NCBI GenBank assembly: GCA_040905365.1 | Contig: JBBDRQ010000080.1 | Location: 3,326 to 67,325, forward strand | DNA length: 64,000 nucleotides | DNA from: Actinomycetota bacterium | GTDB taxonomy: Bacteria; Actinomycetota; CADDZG01; JAHWKV01 | Reading direction: 5' to 3' | Part shown: positions 1,961 to 59,142 of the stretch, piece after piece | Numbering within the stretch: the first letter of the stretch is position 1 | Layout of the letters: every line of letters starts with the position of its first letter | Notes under the pieces: generated by a model | The model's database searches: none | What the model saw: only the letters and a program-made list of their open reading frames with translations | What the model was told of the DNA's origin: nothing | Position numbers and translations under genes: made by a program

Positions 1961-2104
1961 TACCGAATCCCATTCGTGTGAGAAGTCTTCGTGTCTCTTT
2001 ATTATGTCAGCCTTCATCTTGAAGGGCATAATGCGGTAGGTGGGCCGCCGCCCACCAGCCACAAGCGCCGAAGCGACGCTGGGGATGCGCCGGAAGGTTC
2101 GCGA

Positions 2105-3280
2105 ATGCCAGGGGCTGATTCGCCCGATGAACTGCAAAAACTCGCCGACTACGCCGAGGCGCTTTCGGCAGGCGCCGGCGCTCGGAACCGTCTTTCGTGC
2201 ACGGGGGACGCGGCCAGAGTCGCCGCCGCTCTGGAACGGCTCTCCGAACAACTCGCCGCCCGCAACCGGCAGATAGCGCAGTATCAAGCCGCGCTCGACA
2301 GAGCCCACACCCGCTTCGGCGAAGCGCTGCGCTCTACCCACGACCTGGACCGAATGCTCGAGATTGCCCTGGAGACTGGGATGGAGGCCATCCGCGCCCG
2401 CCGCGGCCTGCTGCTGGTGCTGAAGGGCCAGGGCACTTTGGTCGCCGGCGTCAGCCGCAACCTCGAGCTTGACTCGCTCAAGCTCGCACCCGGCCGGGGC
2501 ATCGCGGGCCACGTGGCCGCCACCGGCACCGCCGTAGTGGTGCCTTCGTCCGCCGCGCCCGAGCGGGACCCGCTCGAGCCGGAGTTCTCCACTCAGGTAT
2601 CGGTGCCGCTGTTCACGAACCAGCGCACCTTTGGGGTGCTGAACTTCTACGACAAGTCACAGGGGAACTTCACCGAAACCGACCTGCGCACCATCCTGTC
2701 GCTCAGCGACCAGGCCGGCGTTGCGATCGAGAACGTCCTGCTGCACGAGGATGCGCAGCGCATGGCGATCATGGACGGACTCACCGGTATCTGGAACCAC
2801 CGCTGGTTTCAGATACAGATGGCCCAGGAGCTCGACCGGGCCGAGCGCTTCGGAAGGCCCTTTTCTCTGTTGGTCATGGACATCGACGACTTCAAGTTGT
2901 TCAACGACACCTACGGGCACCAACTGGGGGATTTCGTACTGGTGGAGCTGGCCCGGAGGGTCAAGTCCTCGGTGCGTGACGTGGACATCTTCGCCCGCTA
3001 CGGTGGCGAGGAGTTTGCGTTGCTGCTGTCGGAAACCGACTCCTCGGGCAGCGCCAATGCGGCGGAGAAGCTCCGGCTGGCGATCTGCAGCACCCCCTTC
3101 GAAACCTCTATGGCGCCCGAGCCGTTGACGGTGACCGTCTCCATAGGCGTTGCCTCTTTCCCCGAGGCCGCGTCGGACGGCGCCGGCTTGTTCCGCGCCG
3201 CGGATACGGCGATGTACCGAGCCAAGGCGCTGGGGAAAAACCGGGTTGTGGTGTATGACCCTGCAGGGCATAGTAGTTAG
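2105..3280 (+). CDS. GAF-domain diguanylate cyclase (GGDEF)
   Basis: Central GAF-like region (MLEIALETGMEAIRARRGLLLV...FGVLNFYDK). C-terminal GGDEF domain with RYGGEEFALLL and the DDFKLFNDTYGH motif. The ATG at 2105 follows GGAAGG; the longest ORF starts at 1991. Confidence 0.85.
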   Translation: MPGADSPDELQKLADYAEALSAGAGARNRLSCTGDAARVAAALERLSEQLAARNRQIAQYQAALDRAHTRFGEALRSTHDLDRMLEIALETGMEAIRARRGLLLVLKGQGTLVAGVSRNLELDSLKLAPGRGIAGHVAATGTAVVVPSSAAPERDPLEPEFSTQVSVPLFTNQRTFGVLNFYDKSQGNFTETDLRTILSLSDQAGVAIENVLLHEDAQRMAIMDGLTGIWNHRWFQIQMAQELDRAERFGRPFSLLVMDIDDFKLFNDTYGHQLGDFVLVELARRVKSSVRDVDIFARYGGEEFALLLSETDSSGSANAAEKLRLAICSTPFETSMAPEPLTVTVSIGVASFPEAASDGAGLFRAADTAMYRAKALGKNRVVVYDPAGHSS

Positions 3281-8162: not shown

Positions 8163-8198
8163 CGGAAGCGCTCAGACCGCTACAATTGGCTGTACCGG

Positions 8199-8274
8199 GG
8201 GCCGTAGCTCAGTTGGTAGAGCGCTGCGTTCGCAATGCAGAGGTCAGGGGTTCGAATCCCCTCGGCTCCACCAA
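8199..8274 (+). tRNA. tRNA-Ala (anticodon CGC)
   Basis: Cloverleaf read by hand: acceptor GGGGCCG/CGGCTCC with G3:U70, D-arm GCTC AGTTGGTAG AGC, anticodon loop TTCGCAA, T-arm AGGGG TTCGAAT CCCCT, encoded CCA. Confidence 0.95.
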
Positions 8275-11702: not shown

Positions 11703-13868
11703 TCAGCCGCCGCTGCACATGTCGTCGGTGGCGCCAAGCGGCGCTCGCGCGGCCCGGATCACCTCCAGCGGATCCGCCCCCGCCACGCTCACCTGCTGCC
11801 CATCGACGTCTACGGTTATGGAGCGGTCCCCCACCTGGATGCCCTCGACCCGCAGCCTGTGCATGGACGGCGGCAGGCTGGGCGCAACCCACAGCCGTTG
11901 CCGGCTAACCCATGGATCCAGCCGCAACAATGTCCGCAGCCAGGAAATCGGGGCGGAGGCGCCCCACGCCTGCGGCGAACAGGAGGCCGGGTAGGCGGCG
12001 GGGACGGAAACCTCGGAGCGGGAGAAGCCGGCGAACAGCTCCGGGATCCGCCCGCCGTCCTGCAGCGACGCCTGGATCTGGCCCTCGATGATGCGGTGAG
12101 CCGCGTCGATCAATCCGTACCTGGCCAGACCCGCAGCGCACAGCGCGTTGTCGTGCGGCCATACCGAGCCGTTGTGGTAGCTGACCGGGTTGTATGCGGC
12201 CATACTGGCGGCGAGCGTGCGCACCCCCCACCCGGTGAACATGTCGTCGCTCATCAGGCGATCGGCCACCGCCGCTACCCGATCGGCGTCGACAATGCCA
12301 GTCCACAGACAGTGGCCCACGTTGGACGTCACCGAGTCGATCTGGCGCTTGCCCGCGTCCAGCCCCAGCGCGTACGTCCCCTGGTCGGGCATCCAAAAGT
12401 CTTCGTTGAAATGGCGCCGAAGCGTCGCAGCCTTCGCCCGGTAGTGCTCGCACACCTGCCGATCCCCCGCCTCCTGCGCAAAATGAGCCCGAGCCAGATA
12501 GGCGGCGTAGACGTAACCCTGCACCTCGCATAGGGCGATGGGCGGCTCGGCCAGATCTCCGCCGGCGAAGCGGATGCCGTCCCACGAGTCCTTCCAGCCC
12601 TGGTTGGTCAGGCCGTCGGCCGATTGGCGCAGATACTCGACGTAACCATCGCCGTCCCGGTCGCCGTAGTCCTCGATCCACTGCAGGGCCCGGTCGGCGT
12701 GCGGCAGCAGCCGTTCGATCCATTCGTCGTCGGCTCCCCACCGGCGCGCCTCGCCCAGCAGCATCACGAACAACGGCGTGGCGTCGATCGCGCCGTAGTA
12801 GATGTCGCCGCCGCCCAGGGCCAGCCCGCCGGCGCCCCCGAAGCGCATCTCGTGCAGGATCTTGCCCGGCTCCTCCTCGGTGTCGGGATCCACCCTGGTG
12901 CCTTGAAAGCGCGCCAGCGTCTCGAGCACCCCGCGGGCCAAAGAGGGATCGGCCGGCATGGTCATCCACCCGGTCAGCAGCGAATCCCGTCCGAAGACCG
13001 TCATGAACCAAGGGGCCCCGGCCGCCAGGATCGGCACATCCGGGTACTCTGGGTCGAAGATCCTAAGCGCCCCCAGGTCCTGCCCGGAGGTCGCCACGGC
13101 CGCCGCCAAAGCCGGATCGTCGGTTTCCAAGGTAGGCAGACGGGCCCGCCAGGTGGCCAGCCTGCGACCAGGGGTGCCCACCTCGTCGGACTGCCCGCAC
13201 TTGAACAGCGGCTCCACCGGCCTGCCGTCGAGGGCCACGGTCACCTGTACGCAGATCTCCCAGGAGCTCTTGGGCGCCACGACGCGCTCGAAGGTAGCGC
13301 GGGTGGGCTCCAGCGCTCCGGGTTCGGAGAAACCGATCTCCACCTGCTTGGTACGGCCCTGCAGGCTGCGGTGCTCGAACAGAAGGGCCTGCTCCTGCGC
13401 CTCCTGGCTGTAGCGCCCCCGCAGTCGCACCCGCTCCTCCTTCACCTCGAACAGGTCGGCGAAGTCGGCGTCGCAGCGCAGCTCCACCGACACCCGCGCG
13501 GCGCTCTGAGCGTGGTTGGTGATCACCAGCCGCTCGCGCATGCCGTTGCCGATGTGCCGGAAGCGCATGACCACCAGGTCCGAGTCCGCCGCCCCGGAGG
13601 CCGGCAGGCCGCGACAAACATACGTAGCCGAAAACGGTTCCTGCACCGAGACCACCAGCGTCTCCACGCGGTGGCCGTTCAAGCGCATCTCGAACTTCGA
13701 AAGGATGCGGGTGTCCAGCACGAACAGTCCCTGCGGCAGGTCGGGGAACATGTCGCCCGAGCGCGTCGACAGGCAAAAGGTCTGCCCCTCGACCAGGGTG
13801 ACGTCCCCGCCGCCGCGCCCCACCGACGGCACCGCGGCCGCGCTGTCCCAGCCCGCCTGCCGGTTCAT
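11703..13868 (-). CDS. amylo-alpha-1,6-glucosidase / glycogen-debranching-enzyme-like (GDE N-terminal + GDE_C six-hairpin domains)
   Basis: 721 aa. N-terminal TLVEGQTFCLS...GLFVLDTR pattern and C-terminal GAPWFMTVFGRDSL...GKILHE...YYGAIDATPLF...NQGWKDSWD...YHNGSVWPHDN motifs. Confidence 0.85.
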   Translation of the reverse strand: MNRQAGWDSAAAVPSVGRGGGDVTLVEGQTFCLSTRSGDMFPDLPQGLFVLDTRILSKFEMRLNGHRVETLVVSVQEPFSATYVCRGLPASGAADSDLVVMRFRHIGNGMRERLVITNHAQSAARVSVELRCDADFADLFEVKEERVRLRGRYSQEAQEQALLFEHRSLQGRTKQVEIGFSEPGALEPTRATFERVVAPKSSWEICVQVTVALDGRPVEPLFKCGQSDEVGTPGRRLATWRARLPTLETDDPALAAAVATSGQDLGALRIFDPEYPDVPILAAGAPWFMTVFGRDSLLTGWMTMPADPSLARGVLETLARFQGTRVDPDTEEEPGKILHEMRFGGAGGLALGGGDIYYGAIDATPLFVMLLGEARRWGADDEWIERLLPHADRALQWIEDYGDRDGDGYVEYLRQSADGLTNQGWKDSWDGIRFAGGDLAEPPIALCEVQGYVYAAYLARAHFAQEAGDRQVCEHYRAKAATLRRHFNEDFWMPDQGTYALGLDAGKRQIDSVTSNVGHCLWTGIVDADRVAAVADRLMSDDMFTGWGVRTLAASMAAYNPVSYHNGSVWPHDNALCAAGLARYGLIDAAHRIIEGQIQASLQDGGRIPELFAGFSRSEVSVPAAYPASCSPQAWGASAPISWLRTLLRLDPWVSRQRLWVAPSLPPSMHRLRVEGIQVGDRSITVDVDGQQVSVAGADPLEVIRAARAPLGATDDMCSGG

Positions 13869-16870: not shown

Positions 16871-17293
16871 CTAGCCGGCCGGTTCCAAGGCCACTACCGG
16901 TATCTTGCGGCTGGTGCTTGCCTGGTACTCGACGAACTGCGGGTGCTGCTCGGCGTGCTTGGAGTAGACACGATCCCGCTCGTCACCTTTCAGCTCCACC
17001 GCAGTCACATCGAACTGATCGGAACCCACCTCGACTGTGGCTCGCGGGTTGGCCAGCAGGTTGTGATACCAGGAGGGGTGGGTGGGAGCGCCGCCCTTGG
17101 AGGCAAAGACTATTATCCGGTCCCCATCCGGCTGGTACACCAGCGGCGTCGTCCGCGGTTTTCCACTTTTGGCCCCGGTGGTGGTCAGCAGCACCAGCGG
17201 AGTGTCCTCGAAAATTCCACCAACCTTGCCGCCGTTGGAGCGGAACTCTTCGATAATCGCCCGGTTCCAATCGGTCGATCTAGCCATCAGCAT
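16871..17293 (-). CDS. deazaflavin (F420)-dependent nitroreductase family protein (Ddn-like)
   Basis: NRAIIEEFRSNGGKVGG...LLTTTGAKSGKPRTTPL...GGAPTHPSWYHNLLANP are hallmark motifs. Confidence 0.85.
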   Translation of the reverse strand: MLMARSTDWNRAIIEEFRSNGGKVGGIFEDTPLVLLTTTGAKSGKPRTTPLVYQPDGDRIIVFASKGGAPTHPSWYHNLLANPRATVEVGSDQFDVTAVELKGDERDRVYSKHAEQHPQFVEYQASTSRKIPVVALEPAG

Positions 17294-21634: not shown

Positions 21635-23140
21635 GTGAACGACGTCCCGCACATCGGGCACGCATACACTACCGTGGCGGCTGATTTCGTCGCCCGCTAC
21701 CACCGCATGGCCGGCGAAGACGTCTTTTTTCTTACCGGGACCGACGAACACGGCCAAAAGATCGCCCAAGCGGCCGAGGCCAACAACGTCGATCCCCAGG
21801 CCTGGTGCGACGCAATGATCCCGCGCTGGAAGCAGGTCTGGGACCGGTTGGAGATCTCTTACGACGATTTCATTCGCACGACCGAGCCGCGCCACACCGA
21901 ACCCGTCCAGGAGTTGGTCAAACGCCTTTACGACCAGGGCGACATCTACCTGGACACTTACCGGGGGCCCTACTGTGTGGCCTGTGAAGCTTTCTACCAA
22001 GCCGGGGAGATCACCGACGATCTATGCCCAGTCCACGAGCGTCCGGTGCAGTGGCTGGAGGAGCAGAACTACTTCTTTCGGCTCAGCGCCTACGCGGACC
22101 GGCTACTGGAGCTGTACGAGCAGCATCCCGAGTTCGTCCAGCCCGATATCAGGCTCGCCGAGGTGGCCAGCTTCGTGAAGGCAGGACTGCAGGACCTGTC
22201 GATCTCGCGCACATCGTTCGCGTGGGGTGTGCCCATCCCGTGGGACCCCAAGCACGTCATGTACGTGTGGATCGACGCGCTGCAGAACTACACCACCGCA
22301 GCCGGCTACCTGAACGATCCGCAGCGATTCGGCCGCACCTGGCCGGCCGACGTCCACCTCATCGGCAAGGACATCCTGCGCCAGCACGCGATCATCTGGC
22401 CGGCTGTGTTGATGGCGGCCGGCCTGGATCTGCCCAACACCGTCTTTGCTCACGGCTTTCTGACCGTGGGCGGCAAGAAGATGTCCAAGACCAACCTGAC
22501 CGGAATTGCCCCGGAGCTGCTGCTGGACACCTTCGGCTCGGACGGATACCGGTACCACTTCCTGCGCGAAGGCACCTTCGGGCACGACGCCTCTTTCTCG
22601 TGGGAGGCCATGGTCGCCCGCTACAACGCCGACCTGGCCAACGACCTGGGCAACCTGGTCAGCCGCTCACTGGCCATGACCACCAACTACTTCGATGCGG
22701 TGATCCCCAAACCGGGCGAGGATACCGAGGCGGAGGTCAAGTTGCGGGAGACGGCGGCCGAAGCCGGCCGCCGCTTGGACGATGGGGTGCGCAACCTGGA
22801 TTTGGCGGGCGCCTTGTCCGCAGTGTTCGAGCTCGTAAGGGCCACCAACCACTACATCGACGACACAACGCCCTGGGCACTGGCCAAGCAGCCCGACCAG
22901 CGAGACCGGCTGGCCACCGTCTTGCACACCGTGTGCGAGGCGATCCGGCAAATCTCGCTTCTGATCTCCCCCGCCATGCCTGCCGCGTCGCGGCGCATCC
23001 GCGAACAGCTGGGCATCGACCTCGTCGACGACCGGCCGCTGGCCCAGAGCCTGCCGGCGGGCCGCTCCCTGGTGGGGACCACCATCGATCGGGGCAAGAG
23101 CATATTTCCCAGAATCGACCCGGCCGACAACGGCGAATAG
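21635..23140 (+). CDS. metG: methionine--tRNA ligase (coordinates use the first canonical start; the true N-terminus probably begins upstream, see findings)
   Basis: HIGH motif (VPHIGHAYT) and KMSKT (KMSKS-type) motif, 501 aa from the GTG at 21635. The conserved TFYITTPIYY strand is encoded in-frame just upstream. Confidence 0.9.
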   Translation: MNDVPHIGHAYTTVAADFVARYHRMAGEDVFFLTGTDEHGQKIAQAAEANNVDPQAWCDAMIPRWKQVWDRLEISYDDFIRTTEPRHTEPVQELVKRLYDQGDIYLDTYRGPYCVACEAFYQAGEITDDLCPVHERPVQWLEEQNYFFRLSAYADRLLELYEQHPEFVQPDIRLAEVASFVKAGLQDLSISRTSFAWGVPIPWDPKHVMYVWIDALQNYTTAAGYLNDPQRFGRTWPADVHLIGKDILRQHAIIWPAVLMAAGLDLPNTVFAHGFLTVGGKKMSKTNLTGIAPELLLDTFGSDGYRYHFLREGTFGHDASFSWEAMVARYNADLANDLGNLVSRSLAMTTNYFDAVIPKPGEDTEAEVKLRETAAEAGRRLDDGVRNLDLAGALSAVFELVRATNHYIDDTTPWALAKQPDQRDRLATVLHTVCEAIRQISLLISPAMPAASRRIREQLGIDLVDDRPLAQSLPAGRSLVGTTIDRGKSIFPRIDPADNGE

Positions 23141-24258: not shown

Positions 24259-24660
24259 TCAGCCCTCGGCCGACTCCTCGAAGTTGAGAGAGCGGGAATT
24301 GATGCAGTAGCGCTGGCCCGTCGGCCCCGGGCCGTCGTCGAACACGTGGCCCAGGTGGGATCCGCAGTTGGCGCACAGCACCTCGGTACGGCGCATAAAC
24401 ATGGAGTTGTCCGGTTCCAGCCGCACCTTTCCGTCCGCAACCGGCTGGGTGAAGCTGGGCCACCCGGTGCCGGAATCGAACTTCACGTCGGAGTCGAACA
24501 GCTCCGCGTCGCACGCCGTGCACCGGTAGGTACCCGGTCGCTTGTTGTCGACATAGGCGCCGGTGAACGGCCGCTCGGTCCCTTTCTCCCTCAGCACGTG
24601 ATACTGCTCGGGGGTTAGCTTCTCCCGCCACTGTTGCTCGCTAAGCTCTTCGGCATCCAA
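24259..24660 (-). CDS. msrB: peptide-methionine (R)-S-oxide reductase
   Basis: [47 protein letters not shown] and RYCINS motifs. I prefer the TTG at 24660 because the longer ORF (to 24792) overlaps the upstream gene. Confidence 0.85.
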
Positions 24661-24686
24661 TTGGGTCTCCCCGTTGATCGGTGCTC

Positions 24687-24965
24687 CTACAACCGTCCCA
24701 GTCCGCCCAGCCTTGCCCTGGAATGGCCGTTTCGGTGCACGTCGGTAAGGATCATCTCGGGCTCGCGCGTGATGGTGACCTTCGGGATCCACTCCTTGAT
24801 CTTGTCGCCGTGCCTGGCGAACAGGTAGTAGCTAATCAACGCGGCTCCGAGCCCCAGCAGTGCGCCGCCCAGGGCTCTGCCCGCAACCACGCTGCCGGCG
24901 CCGGAGGAAAGCACCGTTGCCGGCGGCTTGGTGAGCAGAGTCAATCGGGTTGTTTTGCGCCTCAT
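24687..24965 (-). CDS. small membrane protein, function unknown
   Basis: 92-aa ORF with one clear TM helix ([21 protein letters not shown]). It is weakly supported. Confidence 0.35.
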
Positions 24966-48869: not shown

Positions 48870-50510
48870 TTAGAAGTCCATGCCTCCCGACGGGTCCGGC
48901 ATACCACCGGGCATCCCTCCACCGGAGTGCTCCTCGGGCTTGTCGACGACCACCGCTTCGGTGGTGAGGAACAATGCCGCGATGGAAGCCGCGTTCTGCA
49001 GTGCGGAGCGGGTCACCTTCGCCGGGTCGACGATGCCGGCCTTCATCAGGTCCTCGTACTCACCGGTTGCGGCGTTGAGGCCGTGGCCGGACTTGAGGGT
49101 GCTGATCTTCTCCACCACGACGCCACCCTCGAGGCCGGCGTTCTGCGCAATCTGGCGAAGCGGTGCACCGAGCGCACGGCGCACCATGGTCACACCGGCC
49201 AGCTCGTCGTCCTTGAGGTCGATCTCGAGCTTCTCGAGCGCGGCCTGAGCGAGCACGAGCGTGGTACCTCCACCGGGAACGATGCCTTCCTCGACGGCTG
49301 CCTTGGTCGCCTGTACCGCGTCCTCGATGCGGTGCTTCTTCTCCTTGAGCTCGACCTCGGTCGCGGCTCCTACCTTGATTACTGCAACGCCGCCGGCCAG
49401 CTTGGCCAGACGCTCCTGCAGCTTCTCCTTGTCGTAGTCCGAGTCGCTCTTGTCGATCTCGGCACGAATCTGGTTGACGCGTCCTTTGATCTTGTCGGCG
49501 TCACCTGCACCCTCGACGATCGTGGTCTCGTCCTTGGTGACCACGACCTTGCGGGCCTGGCCCAACAGCGGCAGATCGGTGTTCTCCAGCTTGAGACCGA
49601 CTTCCTCAGAGATCAGCTCGCCGCCGGTGAGCACCGCGATGTCGCTCATCATGGCCTTGCGGCGGTCACCGAACCCGGGCGCCTTGACCGCAACGCTCTT
49701 GAACGTGCCGCGAATCTTGTTAACCACCAGTGTGGCCAGCGCTTCGCCTTCGACGTCCTCGGCGATGATCAGCAGAGGCTTGCTGTTTTGCATAACCTTC
49801 TCCAGGACCGGCAGAACGTCCTTGACCGCCGAGATCTTCGAGTTGGATATGAGGATGTAGGGGTCCTCCAGGACCGCCTCCATGCGCTCGGGGTCGGAGA
49901 CGAAGTACGGGGAGATGTAGCCCTTGTCAAAGCGCATTCCCTCGACCAGCTCCAACTCCAGCCCGAAGGTCTGGGACTCCTCTACGGTGATAACGCCGTC
50001 CTTGCCGACCTTGTCCATGGCCTCGGAGATGATCTCGCCGATCTCACGGTCGTTGTTGGCCGAGATGGCGCCGACGTGCGCTACCTGGTCCTTGCTCTCG
50101 ATTTCCTTGGACATGTTGCCGATGAACTCCACAACGGCACTTACGCCAGTTTCGATTCCCCTTTTAAGGGCGATGGGGTTGGCGCCGGCGGCGACCACGC
50201 GCAGGCCCTCCCGAGTAATGGCGTGGGCCAGAACCGTGGCGGTGGTGGTACCGTCACCCGCTACGTCGTCGGTCTTTTTGGCGACCTCCTTGACGAGTTC
50301 GGCGCCGATCCTCTCGAACGGGTCCTCGAGCTCGATCTCCTTGGCGATGGATACACCATCGTTGGTGATGGTGGGAGCTCCCCACTTCTTCTCTAGAACT
50401 ACGTTGCGTCCCTTGGGACCCAGGGTCACCCTTACCGCGCTGGCTAGGGTCTCCATACCCCTCTCCATAGCGCGCTTGGCTTCATCCCCAAATGCGAGCT
50501 GCTTTGCCAT
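48870..50510 (-). CDS. groEL: chaperonin GroEL (60 kDa)
   Basis: [18 protein letters not shown]...[33 protein letters not shown]..., C-terminal Gly/Met tail [16 protein letters not shown]. Confidence 0.97.
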
Positions 50511-50805: not shown

Positions 50806-51246
50806 ATGGAAACCGGTGGTCGGGTTGATTCGGTAGTCCCCAGAGCCAAGGCGTTTTTTCACGCTCTGCTACCCGCGCTCGCCTACCTTGCAGGCTATCC
50901 GGCCGCGGCCTTCATCCTTGCCTTTACCGGTGCGGCGATGGCCGTGAGCGTGCTGGGCGGACCCCGCTACAGCCTGTTCGGTTTGGTGTTCAAGGCGATC
51001 AGGCCAGTTCTAAAACTCGGACCCGGACGCAACGAGGCCGTGGCACCGCATCGCTTCTCCGAGGCTACGGGAGCCGTCATGCTGCTGGCCGCCGCCTTGC
51101 TCTATCCGCTCGGCGCTCACGGTTTAGCCGAGGCTCTGGCTTTGCTGGTCATGGTCTTTGCAGCCCTCAACGCCGTCGCCGGGGTGTGCGTCGGGTGCCA
51201 GATGTACCTGCTGTTCAAGAGATTCCAACCCGGAGCTACCGGATGA
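50806..51246 (+). CDS. DUF4395 family membrane protein
   Basis: Four hydrophobic segments, C-terminal NAVAGVCVGCQMY motif typical of DUF4395. Confidence 0.65.
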   Translation: METGGRVDSVVPRAKAFFHALLPALAYLAGYPAAAFILAFTGAAMAVSVLGGPRYSLFGLVFKAIRPVLKLGPGRNEAVAPHRFSEATGAVMLLAAALLYPLGAHGLAEALALLVMVFAALNAVAGVCVGCQMYLLFKRFQPGATG

Positions 51247-51659
51247 TGACGGATCCGATAGTCCTTCGATTGCTGGTTCTCGGTGCGTTGCTGTTTGCGG
51301 CCGGGGGCGCAGGCGTAACTTTGCGGCGGTATTTCCGCAACGCTCAGCTTCCCCGCAACTTCGACCGCAGGGACGTGGCGCTTTCCCATCCGGGCCCCAT
51401 CCTGGTGGAGTTCACCTCGCCGTTTTGCCACGAGTGCCAGGTCGCCCTGCCGGTGCTGGAGGCGGTCTCGGCAAGCGACGGAGCGCCGCTGGCGGTGGTC
51501 GACGCCAAGTACCGCCCCGACCTTGCGACAAAGTATGCGATCCGCACCACACCCACCATCCTGGTGGTCAACGCCCAGGGCCGGGTCACCCACGGGTGGC
51601 TGGACAGCGCGCCGACGGCGCAGGATGTAACGGAAGCGCTGGCGCTGGCTTACGGCTAG
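51243..51659 (+). CDS. membrane-anchored thioredoxin-fold protein (CxxC)
   Basis: N-terminal TM, then ILVEFTSPFCHECQ...YAIRTTPTILVV (thioredoxin fold with CHEC). The ATG overlaps the upstream stop (ATGATGA). Confidence 0.72.
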   Translation: MMTDPIVLRLLVLGALLFAAGGAGVTLRRYFRNAQLPRNFDRRDVALSHPGPILVEFTSPFCHECQVALPVLEAVSASDGAPLAVVDAKYRPDLATKYAIRTTPTILVVNAQGRVTHGWLDSAPTAQDVTEALALAYG

Positions 51660-51678: not shown

Positions 51679-51951
51679 CTAACCTCCGGCCACCGCCGGC
51701 AGTATCGATATCAACGTCCCGTCGGGAACCTTGGTATCCAAGCCGTCGAGGAACCTCACGTCTTCCTCTCCAACGTATATGTTGACGAACCGGCGAACCT
51801 CGCCGTGATCGTCCAGCAGCCGCTCGGTGAGCTCCGGGTAGCTCCCGGCAAGCTGACCCAGCAGGTCGCGCAGGTCTACCGCTGAATCCACGGCCAACTC
51901 GGGCTGCCCGTCGGCCAGTTGGCGCAGTTGGGTTGGGATCTTCACTTTCAC
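51679..51951 (-). CDS. MoaD/ThiS/CysO-type sulfur-carrier protein (C-terminal Gly-Gly)
   Basis: 90 aa ending ...ILPAVAGG, with RFVNIYVGEEDVRF as in CysO-type carriers. The start overlaps the upstream stop (ATGA at 51948-51951). Confidence 0.85.
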   Translation of the reverse strand: MKVKIPTQLRQLADGQPELAVDSAVDLRDLLGQLAGSYPELTERLLDDHGEVRRFVNIYVGEEDVRFLDGLDTKVPDGTLISILPAVAGG

Positions 51952-53192
51952 GCTGATAGCAGCCTCATCTCCTCTTCAAACTTGTCAAGGTTGCCTGAAA
52001 TATGGAAGTTAGGGCCTACCCGGCCCGTCAGAGCCTCTGCCGTCTTAAGCCCCATACCCGTTATCAGGGCAACCACGGTCTCGGACTCAGCAAACACGCC
52101 GGCCTCGGCCATTTTCCTCAACGCGGCGATAGTCACACCTCCGGCCGTCTCGGCGAATATACCTTCGGTCGACGCCAGCAGGCGTATTCCGCTAACGATC
52201 TCCTCGTCGGTTACGTCTTCGCCGGTACCGCCCGTCTCGCCCACCGCAGCCGCGGCGTAGTAGCCGTCGGCGGGGTTACCTATGGCCAGGGACTTGGCGA
52301 TGGTGTCGGGTTTTACGGGGCGGATGACGTCCGTGCCTCCTTTGATCGCAGCAACTACCGGGTTGCACCCAACCGCCTGCGCCGCGTGCACCTTGGTGTG
52401 CGGCGCTTCGTCCAGAATCCCGACCTTGTGGTACTCCTGCAGCCCCTTGCGGAACTTGGTCAGAAGACTGCCGCTGGCCACCGGAACCACTACGTGATCG
52501 GGCGAGCGCCAGTCGAGCTGCTCGGCCACCTCGAACGCCAGCGTCTTGGAACCCTCCGAATAAAAGGGCCGCAGGTTGACGTTCACAAACCCCCACTCGC
52601 CCTTTTGGGCAATCTCCGAGCACAGCTTGTTCACGTGGTCGTAGTTGCCCTCCACCGCCACCAGGTTGCCCCCGTAAATGGCGGTTGTGATGACCTTGCC
52701 CTGCTCCAGGTTGGCCGGGATGAACACAAAGGAGCGCAGCCCTGCCTTGGCGGCGTGAGCGGCCACGGCGTTGGCCAGGTTACCGGTCGATGCGCAGGAA
52801 ACCGTGTCAAAACCCATCTCGCGAGCCACCGTGAGCGCCACACTTACCACCCGGTCCTTGAACGAGTGGGTCGGGTTGGCCGTGTCGTTTTTGATGTAGA
52901 GGGTGGAGATGCCCAACGCCTCAGCCAGACGGTCCGCCTTGAGCAGCGGCGTAAGGCCGGCACCGATATCTACCCGATCGGCCGCGGCGGCCACCGGAAG
53001 CAACTCCGAGTAGCGCCAGATCGAGGCCGGCCCCTGCTTGATCGATTCCCGAGAGATCCGCGTGGCAATGTCCTCGTAATCAAAGACCGGCTCCAGCGGG
53101 GCAAAGCAGAAGTCACAGACGTATATGGGTGCGGACTGGTATCTGCGTCCGCACTCCCTGCACTCAAGTTCGTCGATCTTGGCCACGGTCAC
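51948..53192 (-). CDS. threonine synthase-family PLP enzyme with N-terminal zinc ribbon (candidate MetM-type homocysteine synthase)
   Basis: CRECGRRY...CDFC ribbon, PLP-lysine region NPTHSFKDR, glycine loop STGNLA. The start is GTG 53192, or more likely GTG 53186, which is 5 nt after AGGGG. Confidence 0.88.
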   Translation of the reverse strand: MTVAKIDELECRECGRRYQSAPIYVCDFCFAPLEPVFDYEDIATRISRESIKQGPASIWRYSELLPVAAAADRVDIGAGLTPLLKADRLAEALGISTLYIKNDTANPTHSFKDRVVSVALTVAREMGFDTVSCASTGNLANAVAAHAAKAGLRSFVFIPANLEQGKVITTAIYGGNLVAVEGNYDHVNKLCSEIAQKGEWGFVNVNLRPFYSEGSKTLAFEVAEQLDWRSPDHVVVPVASGSLLTKFRKGLQEYHKVGILDEAPHTKVHAAQAVGCNPVVAAIKGGTDVIRPVKPDTIAKSLAIGNPADGYYAAAAVGETGGTGEDVTDEEIVSGIRLLASTEGIFAETAGGVTIAALRKMAEAGVFAESETVVALITGMGLKTAEALTGRVGPNFHISGNLDKFEEEMRLLSA

Positions 53193-53200
53193 CCCTAAAC

Positions 53201-53229
53201 AAAAAAATCGCCTGCCGATGGCAGGCGAT
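53201..53229 (-). terminator. riboswitch expression-platform terminator
   Basis: Minus strand reads AUCGCCUGCC-auc-GGCAGGCGAU followed by U7. It lies immediately upstream of the ThrC-like start. Confidence 0.8.
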
Positions 53230-53245
53230 CCATATGCTAGACCTG

Positions 53246-53359
53246 CTCATCTGCCCCGGTCCGGCCGGGCGGGATTTAGCACCTTTCAGTCGTCTTGCTA
53301 AGCCTGACTGAAGGCTGCCGAGGCGTCACAGGGCCCGTCCCTCTACCTCTCTTGATGAG
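53246..53359 (-). promoter_or_regulatory. SAM-I riboswitch (S-box) aptamer
   Basis: Minus strand reads CUCAUCAAGAGAGGUAGAGGGACGGGCCCUGUGACGCCUCGGCAGCC...GGUGCUAAAUCCCGCC...GGCAGAUGAG. P1 is CUCAUC/GAUGAG, and the GAGGGA, GGCCC and GGUGCUAAAUCC cores match the S-box consensus. Confidence 0.9.
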
Positions 53360-53448
53360 AATCTAACCATCGCATCCCCCCAAACGGCTGTCAAACAGCC
53401 GCGCCACCCGACAACGGCCCGAGCCGAGGCACGAAACGGCCCAGCCCG

Positions 53449-54872: not shown

Positions 54873-56348
54873 ATGAGCCCGGTGGAGCAGACACTTGCCG
54901 GGCGCTCCTTGCTGGTCGCATCCAACCGGGGCCCGGTCACCTTCCAGGAGGACGATACCGGGCGGATAGTGGCAAGCCGTGGCGCCGGAGGCCTGGTCAC
55001 CGCGCTCACCGAGGTCATGAAGGACGCCTCCGGGCTGTGGGTGGCCTCGGCCATGTCGCCGGGCGACATGGAAATGGTCAAACGGCACCCCGGCGGCCCG
55101 CTCCGGACGCAGGTTGACGGGGCCGACCTGCGACTGCGCTACCTTGCTTTCGACGAGGACACGTTCGGCCGCTATTACAACGGGATTTCCAACTCCATAT
55201 TGTGGTTCATGAACCACAATATGTGGAACCTGCCCATGACCCCGGTTTTCGACGCCCAAACCGCCGGCGACTGGCGAGCTTACCAGCAGGTAAACCGTAC
55301 CTTTGCCGAGGCCCTCGCCGCCGAAGTTTCCGGTCGGGAGTCCACCTCGGAGGTGATGCTACAGGATTACCACCTGTTGCTGACCGCGCGGTACTTAAAG
55401 GACCTGGTGCCCGAGGCGTTCAGCTACCACTTCACGCACACGCCGTGGGCTCAGCCCTCAATGATGTCGGTGCTTCCGGGAACCATGGCCACGGAAATAC
55501 TCGAAGGAATGCTGGCCAACGACCTGCTCGGCTTCCAGTGCCCCCGCTGGTCAACGAACTTCATGTGGTGCTGCCGGCAAATATTAGGTGCGCAGGTCGA
55601 CCTCGAGCGGCAGACCGTCACTTATCGGGAAGCAACCACCGCAGTGCGCGACTACCCGATCTCCGTCGATGCCTCTGCGATGCAGTCGGTAGCTCATTCT
55701 AAGTCCTCCGCTCAGTATCTGGAATGGCTCGAAAAACTCCTCAACGGTCGCAAGCTGGTGCTCAGGATCGACCGGTTCGAGCTGTCCAAGAACATCCTGC
55801 GCGGTTTCACCGGCTTCGCTCAGATGCTAAAGGACCATCCCGAACTAACCGGCAAGGTAGTGCACCTGGCTTTGCTCTACCCTTCCCGAGAAGCCCTGGC
55901 CGAGTACCGGGAGTACGAGGCTCGGGCCGTCGAGCTGGCAGGGCAGATCAACGACGAGCTTGGGACCGACGACTGGCAGCCGATAGTGCTGATCAACGAA
56001 GCCAACTACGTGCGGGCAATCACCAGTTGCCGGCGCTACGACGTACTGATGGTCAACGCCATCAGCGACGGGATGAACCTGGTGGCCAAAGAGGGTCCGG
56101 CGGTCAACGAGGTCGGTGGCACAGTGGTGCTCTCCAGGACCACCGGGGCGTGGGACGAGCTGCGGGAGGGGGTGCTGGGGGTCAATCCCTACGACGTGCA
56201 AGAACTGGCCGATGCCCTGTACCGCGGATTGACCATGCCCGGCCCCGAGCGGCAGCGCCTGGCCGAGAACAATCGGCAGGTCGTCCACGCCAGCACCCCC
56301 CGCAGCTGGGTGCTGAGACAGTTGAGGGACATGGCCCTGCTGGCCTAA
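54873..56348 (+). CDS. otsA: alpha,alpha-trehalose-phosphate synthase (GT20)
   Basis: LLVASNRGP, NSILWFMNH, LQDYHLLL, RIDRFELSKNI and DGMNLVAKE motifs. Confidence 0.9.
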   Translation: MSPVEQTLAGRSLLVASNRGPVTFQEDDTGRIVASRGAGGLVTALTEVMKDASGLWVASAMSPGDMEMVKRHPGGPLRTQVDGADLRLRYLAFDEDTFGRYYNGISNSILWFMNHNMWNLPMTPVFDAQTAGDWRAYQQVNRTFAEALAAEVSGRESTSEVMLQDYHLLLTARYLKDLVPEAFSYHFTHTPWAQPSMMSVLPGTMATEILEGMLANDLLGFQCPRWSTNFMWCCRQILGAQVDLERQTVTYREATTAVRDYPISVDASAMQSVAHSKSSAQYLEWLEKLLNGRKLVLRIDRFELSKNILRGFTGFAQMLKDHPELTGKVVHLALLYPSREALAEYREYEARAVELAGQINDELGTDDWQPIVLINEANYVRAITSCRRYDVLMVNAISDGMNLVAKEGPAVNEVGGTVVLSRTTGAWDELREGVLGVNPYDVQELADALYRGLTMPGPERQRLAENNRQVVHASTPRSWVLRQLRDMALLA

Positions 56349-59065: not shown

Positions 59066-59142
59066 GCTGGTGTGGCGCAATTCGGCAGCGCAACCGACTT
59101 GTAATCGGTAGGCTCCCGGTTCGAATCCGGGCACCAGCTCCA
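59066..59142 (+). tRNA. tRNA-Thr (anticodon TGT)
   Basis: Acceptor GCTGGTG/CACCAGC, D-arm GCGC AATTCGGCA GCGC, anticodon arm ACCGA CTTGTAA TCGGT, T-arm CCCGG TTCGAAT CCGGG, discriminator T, encoded CCA. Confidence 0.93.

Follow-up and report, generated by a model that had tools for sequence, protein, structure and literature searches.

Why does a gene whose relatives are labelled threonine synthase lie behind a riboswitch for S-adenosylmethionine (SAM)? The question is raised by a locus on the minus strand of contig JBBDRQ010000080.1 (GCA_040905365.1), within a 64-kb stretch from an Actinomycetota bacterium that was analysed as a whole and is hereafter called the window. At this locus a SAM-I (S-box) leader is followed by a gene for an enzyme of the threonine synthase (ThrC) family and then by a gene for a small sulfur carrier of the ThiS/MoaD/CysO family. 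We read it as a SAM-I attenuation switch controlling a MetM/MetO-type pair, that is, a homocysteine synthase that depends on the thiocarboxylate of its carrier, and place the probability of this reading at about 0.85. An initial annotation, made from the sequence alone, had proposed the same pathway, and that proposal gains support from the match to the SAM-I model, the separation of the enzyme from characterised ThrCs, the residue changes that accompany this separation, the CysO-like carrier and the recurrence of SAM-I/ThrC-like/ThiS loci in other genomes. The MetM/MetO pathway has already been published together with its SAM riboswitch, and the finding is therefore correct but not new. The initial annotation may have given too little weight to the fact that a SAM riboswitch upstream of metM belongs to the published description.

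A SAM-I leader ahead of two coupled genes

An Rfam scan of the window returned a single riboswitch match, to the SAM-I family RF00162, at 53361..53244 on the minus strand. The match scored 78.9 bits against a gathering score of 44.4 (E 6.9e-17) and was untruncated, extending over positions 1-108 of the 108-position model. The initial annotation had described a textbook S-box aptamer running from 53359 to 53246 and had suggested this Rfam search as a check, which it has now passed. Moreover, the P1 stem that it named, CUCAUC (53359-53354) with GAUGAG (53251-53246), is present in the sequence, as are all of the core strings that it quoted. We regard the riboswitch component of the locus as close to certain. 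The hairpin with a U7 tract that had been put forward as a terminator was recovered by an independent consensus scan as a stem-loop of 12 pairs including G-U, with 7 G-C pairs, a loop of 3 and a T-rich tail, and ViennaRNA gives the hairpin an energy of -19.0 kcal/mol (Table 1). Folding of the segment also yields a candidate antiterminator, in which GAUGAGCAGG (the 3′ strand of P1 plus CAGG) is base-paired to CCUGCCAUC (loop and 5′ arm of the terminator); this pairing is mutually exclusive with both P1 and the terminator. As modelled, the competition between P1 and the antiterminator is the classical S-box arrangement, and we infer that termination in this leader is SAM-dependent. Further upstream, a perfect -35-like TTGACA is found at 53394-53389 (minus strand), ~28 nt from the aptamer, with no convincing -10 element at 16-18 nt. 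The leader transcript may originate from an actinobacterial promoter that departs from the consensus, or may arise by read-through from the AI-2E transporter gene (54768-53449).

The first gene behind the leader encodes a fold-type-II enzyme dependent on pyridoxal phosphate (PLP), with a PALP domain (Pfam, E 2e-71), the PLP lysine K110 in the motif NPTHSFKDR, and an N-terminal Cys4 ribbon (CxxC...CxxC) that is invariant in 11 homologs. The lysine of SFKDR aligns to K61 of the Thermus thermophilus ThrC. Two GTG codons could serve as its start. The first (53192) overlaps AGGGG (53196-53192), the sole Shine-Dalgarno-like element, whereas the second (53186) follows 5 nt after that element and agrees with the 412-aa form found in the database (P0001). 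Therefore, a length of 412 aa is more likely than the 414 aa that follow from a start at 53192, and the initial annotation, which had given 414 aa, holds for the family, the lysine motif and the Cys4 ribbon but probably not for the length.

The second gene encodes the carrier, for which the initial annotation had already given 90 residues and an AVAGG end. Both are borne out: the protein matches Pfam ThiS (E 5e-13) and NF041918 SAMP1 (58.4 bits) and terminates in ...ILPAVAGG-stop. Its best match among solved structures is CysO of Mycobacterium tuberculosis (3dwg_C, E 8.8e-17), over the full length and with an identical ILPAVAGG end. Judging from its sequence, a carrier that ends exactly at GG should need no C-terminal maturation. 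The enzyme gene, which stops at TGA, and the carrier gene, which starts at GTG, overlap by 4 nt (...TCA GCG TGA / GTG AAA GTG...), so that the coupling proposed earlier stands as regards the overlap, while the junction reads GTGA and not ATGA. Nearby, ATGA occurs as an overlap only on the opposite strand, where it joins the DUF4395 and thioredoxin genes.

An enzyme clade apart from threonine synthase

By the usual models the enzyme would be called a threonine synthase. It scores 289.3 bits with the thrC equivalog TIGR00260, against a cutoff of 167.1, its nearest solved structures are ThrCs (E 7e-59 to 1e-37), and every named relative in two large protein searches carries the label 'threonine synthase', a label that follows from the TIGR00260 score above cutoff. 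The warning in the initial annotation that automatic assignment as thrC would be wrong was thus well placed. Models of neighbouring families fit less well: the cysteate synthase model gives 60.7 bits against a cutoff of 324.9, and the CysM/CysK models match a fragment only, at ~46 bits, so that the enzyme does not belong to the CysM/CysK family.

A tree set against characterised ThrCs had been suggested as a further check. We aligned 27 homologs linked to a ThiS-like gene with six canonical ThrCs (from Bacillus subtilis, Aquifex, T. thermophilus, M. tuberculosis and Arabidopsis, and the thrC product of Nonomuraea) and built a neighbour-joining tree with 200 bootstrap replicates. The enzyme falls outside the ThrC clade, and the split between the two groups was recovered in 200/200 replicates. 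Its identity to the ThrCs is 34-37%, against 55-59% to members of its own clade from other phyla; cyanobacterial and Nitrospirota members reach 58-59%, and the SAM-I-linked copy of Nonomuraea 54.7%.

The alignment also separates the groups residue by residue. Positions T88, S155, N157, R160 and G187-N188-A-G-N191 (T. thermophilus numbering) are kept in 6/6 canonical ThrCs. At the same positions 27/27 clade members have L, N (with a 1-residue insertion), R, Y and A-(S/G)-G-S-(L/Q), and the window enzyme, with L, N, R, Y and A-S-G-S-L, carries the clade residues and not those of ThrC. The key substitutions relative to ThrC are therefore T88L, S155N, N157R, R160Y and N188S, and the corresponding signature residues in the window enzyme include L137, N204, Y209 and S238. 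Three short motifs serve to tell the clade from ThrC in practice: STGN-L-A versus STGN-T-S, VNVN-x-R-P-x-Y versus N-SVNP-x-R, and ASGS versus GNAG. This signature is a direct result of the alignment, and any mechanistic meaning that we attach to it below is our inference.

A control for the separation is provided by Nonomuraea gerenzanensis, which serves here as a proxy genome for the window and holds a second, canonical thrC besides its SAM-I-linked copy. In NZ_LT559118.1 tblastn found three places of ThrC-family similarity. At 11.81 Mb, a divergent otsA is followed by a SAM-I riboswitch (68.7 bits), a gene for a 408-aa ThrC-like enzyme, a gene for a carrier of 91 aa with an AVAGG end, and groEL; the otsA...groEL synteny is common to this locus and the window. 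At 2.50 Mb lies a canonical thrC of 352 aa, 65% identical to the ThrC of M. tuberculosis, with thrB and rho next in order. Identity between the two paralogues is 33%, and the ThrC signature is found only in the canonical copy. The sequence is listed in PLSDB as 'plasmid I' (L084, L085), yet at 11.85 Mb and with groEL, rho, thrC-thrB and otsA it is evidently the chromosome of this cultured actinomycete.

The module in other genomes and its surroundings in the window

Species-representative genomes were scanned for the diagnostic motifs CASTGNLAN and W[AG]FVNVN[ILV]R, which together mark at least 600 stretches, in at least 600 genomes. The phyla represented number 10 or more, and Cyanobacteria, Nitrospirota, Chloroflexota and Aquificota are among them. 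The best 80 loci were analysed. They span Actinomycetota/Acidimicrobiia, Chloroflexota, Nitrospirota/Nitrospinota, Cyanobacteria, Planctomycetota, Verrucomicrobiota, Aquificota and Elusimicrobiota, among others, and the window enzyme is at most 65% identical to any species-representative copy among the matches listed. At 72/80 loci the enzyme gene is directly followed by a ThiS-like open reading frame (ORF), usually with a 4-nt overlap or within a few tens of bases. Most of these ORFs end in A(V/I)AGG-stop; others continue for 1-14 residues or carry a fused NIL domain. No streptomycete copy was present in the best 80 loci, and tblastn against a plasmid collection gave Nonomuraea only; a protein search seeded with the Nonomuraea enzyme likewise returned Streptosporangiales and no Streptomyces copy.

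Riboswitches in these relatives were sought with a regular expression for the SAM-I core motif, and a subset of loci was checked with Rfam. The core motif stands directly upstream and on the same strand at 34 of the 80 loci by the regular expression; Rfam confirmed 18/19 of the positive loci tested and found nothing at any of the negative ones (0/8). Confirmed loci come from Actinomycetota, from Dehalococcoidia, Anaerolineae and Ardenticatenales (Chloroflexota), from Methylacidiphilales and Chthoniobacteraceae (Verrucomicrobiota) and from Ca. Acidulodesulfobacterium. Three hits rest with the regular expression: one directly upstream but unconfirmed (L051), one distant and unseen by Rfam (L012), and one inside a coding sequence on the minus strand (L025). 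Cyanobacterial and Nitrospirota loci are generally without a riboswitch.

Two kinds of expression platform can be distinguished. A hairpin with a U-tract follows the aptamer in the window and in L056, L028, L033, L024 and L021. At six Acidimicrobiia loci (L060, L032, L022, L014, L013 and L031) only 6-11 nt separate the end of the aptamer from the start codon, a distance that implies a translational platform, with the ribosome-binding site within or next to the 3′ strand of P1. The SAM-I/ThrC-like/ThiS module thus extends well beyond Streptomyces and employs at least two expression platforms.

Larger clusters associate the pair with further sulfur-transfer genes. In L056 (5790-10338) and L028 (4844-9297) one SAM-I leader is followed by five genes on the same strand, in the order ThrC-like enzyme, ThiS-NIL fusion (171 aa), E1 of the MoeB/MoeZ/UbaA type, CysM-like enzyme and JAMM protein (desampylase-like). 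Both E1 and JAMM helpers share a cluster with the pair in L023, L026, L028 and L056, and a separate enzyme of the CysM/CysK type lies beside the ThrC-like one in L023, L028 and L056. Nitrospirota loci have the pair clustered with ThiF, NIL and CysK/CysM genes. These conserved associations tie the ThrC-like enzyme to sulfur transfer from a thiocarboxylate and, by way of the riboswitch, to the methionine/SAM branch. The ThiS-NIL fusion is unusual; L082 has one as well, and L023 has a free-standing NIL protein. A different fusion, of ThiS to ThiF (416 aa, with the carrier domain N-terminal), was observed in the Dehalococcoidia locus L026 at 11746-12996 on the plus strand, ~4.5 kb downstream of the pair.

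In the window itself the pair is flanked by groEL and otsA, with the AI-2E transporter gene and a thioredoxin/DUF4395 gene pair in between (Table 1). The neighbours of the enzyme gene are thus the AI-2E transporter, the carrier, the thioredoxin/DUF4395 pair, groEL and otsA, with neither hom nor thrB adjacent, and scans of the ORFs found no other ThrC-family gene and no hom in the 64 kb. The DUF4395 and thioredoxin-like genes are coupled by ATGA, are convergent with the carrier gene and end 19 nt from it. They occur beside the ThrC-like/ThiS pair only in the window lineage (L001-L003) and are missing from the other 80 loci. They may contribute to the sulfur or redox supply of the pathway. As members of the riboswitch unit they were ruled out, being on the opposite strand, convergent and restricted to this lineage.

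Table 1. Features of the locus and of the remainder of the window
Feature	Position	Strand	Basis or remarks
SAM-I (S-box) riboswitch aptamer	53244..53361	-	Rfam RF00162; P1 by ViennaRNA fold
Candidate antiterminator	53215..53257	-	ViennaRNA segment fold, -14.8 kcal/mol; computational
Intrinsic terminator	53201..53231	-	G+C-rich hairpin 53231-53205 and U7 tract 53207-53201; terminator scan
Shine-Dalgarno-like AGGGG	53192..53196	-	Read from sequence; 5 nt upstream of GTG 53186
metM-like gene, ThrC-family fold-type-II PLP enzyme	51948..53186	-	Pfam PALP, TIGR00260, PDB matches, tree
metO-like gene, 90-aa ThiS/MoaD/CysO-family sulfur carrier	51679..51951	-	Pfam ThiS, NF041918, PDB match
Thioredoxin-like gene	51243-51659	+	~138 aa, N-terminal hydrophobic segment, CHEC motif
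DUF4395 gene	50806-51246	+	146 aa, CVGC near C-terminus
groEL	48870-50510		Flank of the pair
otsA	54873-56348		Flank of the pair
Methionyl-tRNA synthetase gene	21635-23140	+	Without riboswitch
MsrB (SelR) gene	24259-24792	-	Without riboswitch
tRNA gene	8198-8270	+	Rfam, 72.5 bits
tRNA gene	59066-59139	+	Rfam, 69.6 bits
GAF-GGDEF diguanylate cyclase	1991-3280	+	
F420H2-dependent quinone reductase family protein	16871-17293	-	Fits actinobacterial host

Proposed function, alternatives and known systems

The closest published precedent is the route reported for Streptomyces albulus by Hasebe et al. in 2024 (Appl Environ Microbiol 90:e01247-24). In it, MetM (a ThrC homologue), MetO (the carrier), MoeZ (E1) and Mec (JAMM) convert O-phosphohomoserine into homocysteine (bioRxiv 10.1101/2024.10.14.618325). 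According to this preprint, MetM frequently carries the wrong label of threonine synthase, and the steps of the route have been added to GapMind 2026. Another account, which cites Hasebe 2024, places a SAM riboswitch upstream of the S. albulus metM (PMC12172450), and a transcriptome study of Streptomyces lividans mapped an RF00162 leader ahead of a two-gene 'threonine biosynthesis' operon (PMC8079986). Substrate, sulfur donor and product at the window locus are proposed by analogy with the characterised S. albulus system.

On this model, high SAM would leave the aptamer bound and P1 locked, the hairpin with its U7 tract would form and transcription would end ~15 nt before the coding region. 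At low SAM the freed 3′ strand of P1, within GAUGAGCAGG, would pair with the 5′ arm of the terminator and permit read-through into both genes, translation of which would be coupled through the GTGA overlap. The first product would be a PLP enzyme of the MetM type, which as a paralogue has diverged from threonine synthase, and the second a carrier of the MetO/CysO type, encoded with Gly-Gly at its end. An E1 of the MoeZ/MoeB type, from a gene elsewhere, would adenylate the C-terminus of the carrier and turn it into a thiocarboxylate. The enzyme would then eliminate phosphate from O-phospho-L-homoserine and add the carrier sulfur at C-gamma, giving homocysteine, and by analogy with CysO/Mec a JAMM hydrolase may first have to free a carrier-homocysteine adduct.

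Several observations weigh against this reading. No E1/ThiF, JAMM, rhodanese or thrB (homoserine kinase) gene was found among the ~45 ORFs scanned in the window, as the initial annotation had said of the MoeZ-like E1 and the JAMM partner, and a consensus scan found no sigma-70-like promoter upstream of the aptamer. The closest relatives on long contigs, L002 and L003 (9924-11575), have an enzyme 67% identical to that of the window and the same AI-2E...groEL synteny, but there is no SAM riboswitch in their 77-nt intergenic region and their carrier runs on for 14 residues beyond GG (...AVAGG-EVGSSVCRFSPSGA). Close lineages would therefore differ in regulation and in whether the carrier has to be matured. 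Orthology to the S. albulus MetM is argued from transitive identities, synteny and the regulatory and carrier context; this case is strong but indirect. Lastly, structural work on the T. thermophilus enzyme reportedly places T88, S155, R160 and N188 in the ThrC pocket for the phosphate of substrate or product, and a literature search for support of these roles found nothing usable. In ThrC this phosphate would direct the addition of water.

A further adverse observation underlies the alternative that survives best. The Microcystis aeruginosa member of the clade, 51.6% identical to the S. albulus MetM and with a metO-like neighbour, is reported to have acted in vitro both as a threonine synthase and as a threonine deaminase, and no rise of methionine was seen in vivo on its induction (PMC12172450). 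The window enzyme, ~58% identical to cyanobacterial members and above the TIGR00260 cutoff, might likewise be a bifunctional or 'moonlighting' threonine synthase/threonine deaminase, the carrier having an unrelated or accessory role. We consider this very unlikely. The sulfur donor tried in that study, which itself notes the identity to MetM, was Na2S and not a thiocarboxylated carrier (PMC12172450). Moreover, a leader repressed by SAM suits the methionine/SAM branch and not threonine metabolism, the residues invariant in ThrC are replaced throughout the clade, and both the pairing with a GG-ended carrier (72/80) and the clusters with E1, JAMM and CysM point to sulfur transfer.

Slightly less probable again is a thiocarboxylate-dependent enzyme with another substrate, for example one in a CysM/CysO-like role that converts O-phosphoserine into cysteine, or one that acts on some other sulfur metabolite feeding the SAM cycle. 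The carrier is nearest to CysO of the M. tuberculosis cysteine pathway, and the ThrC family includes cysteate synthase, to which there are weak NCBIfam matches here. SAM-I riboswitches also control genes leading from cysteine to methionine in Firmicutes. However, the cysteate synthase score stays far below its cutoff, the characterised member of the family uses O-phosphohomoserine, and the separate CysM/CysK-type enzyme in the larger clusters suggests distinct roles in cysteine and homocysteine synthesis. An ordinary ThrC behind a SAM riboswitch, perhaps partitioning O-phosphohomoserine between threonine and methionine, would explain the TIGR00260 score, the names of the relatives and the ThrCs as best structural matches, but is hardly credible given the separate clade at 34-37% identity, the replacement of T88, S155, R160 and N188, the lack of hom or thrB context, the canonical thrC-thrB-rho that Nonomuraea keeps besides its syntenic copy, and a repression at high SAM opposite to the logic of plants, in which ThrC is activated by SAM.

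The MetM/MetO-type homocysteine synthase thus remains the preferred reading, and it has a practical consequence: metabolic reconstructions of metagenome-assembled genomes such as this one would contain a spurious or duplicated threonine step and would miss the homocysteine route. A wider reading, which we offer as speculative and on balance doubtful, joins the observations into a single ancient, pan-bacterial MetM-type clade in which a remodelled site switched the reaction, with a trimmed pathway in the window lineage. T88L, R160Y and N188S would then mark the change from addition of water at C-beta to addition of a thiocarboxylate at C-gamma. The GG-ended carrier would be ready for use, and thioredoxin with DUF4395 might stand in for dedicated helpers with a reducing or sulfur-relay capacity. 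If this were true, thiocarboxylate-dependent homocysteine synthesis would be a major route by which environmental bacteria reach methionine, and one that has largely escaped annotation.

Compared with known systems, the leader resembles the S-box attenuation leaders of Bacillus met/cys genes in its four-way-junction aptamer and in the choice of terminator, upon P1 stabilisation, over an antiterminator built on the 3′ strand of P1. It differs in its host, a high-G+C actinobacterium, and in its regulated genes, a MetM/MetO pair and not metI/metC, metE, metK and the like. With canonical ThrC (PDB 6CGQ, 2ZSJ, 1UIM, 2D1F, 1E5X) the enzyme shares the fold, the SFKDR lysine motif, the CASTGN loop and presumably the substrate O-phosphohomoserine. 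Apart from its low identity and separate clade, it is distinguished by the change of GNAGN to ASGSL, by the added N-terminal Cys4 ribbon and by its pairing with a sulfur carrier instead of hom/thrB.

The CysO/CysM/Mec+ system of M. tuberculosis (3DWG/3DWM) offers the closest solved homolog of the carrier, and its logic is alike, in that a PLP enzyme acts on an O-phospho amino acid with sulfur drawn from the thiocarboxylate of a carrier. CysM-like, E1 and JAMM genes also join the ThrC-like pair in clusters of other phyla. The partner of the window carrier, however, is of the ThrC family and not CysM/CysK, is under SAM-I control and is expected to carry out a gamma-replacement on O-phosphohomoserine instead of a beta-replacement on O-phosphoserine. 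Thiocarboxylate-dependent homocysteine synthesis was reportedly described by Krishnamoorthy and Begley in 2011 for HcyS/HcyF/HcyD/MetY of Wolinella succinogenes. In that system a ThiS-like thiocarboxylate likewise supplies the sulfur of homocysteine, helped by a JAMM protease and an E1, but its synthase is a MetY-type enzyme of fold-type I acting on O-acetylhomoserine, whereas the window has a fold-type-II ThrC paralogue that by homology would use O-phosphohomoserine.

The closest correspondence is with MetM/MetO of S. albulus: in both actinobacteria a PLP enzyme homologous to ThrC, labelled 'threonine synthase' by standard pipelines, is followed by a small ThiS/MoaD-type carrier and preceded by a SAM riboswitch. 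On the side of the window, the host is of an uncultured Actinomycetota lineage, the carrier is encoded with its GG end, the expression platform is an intrinsic terminator, and a membrane-anchored thioredoxin and DUF4395 are convergent neighbours, in an otsA...groEL setting shared with the SAM-I-linked pair of Nonomuraea. The locus therefore confirms the distribution of a known pathway and extends it by a new member.

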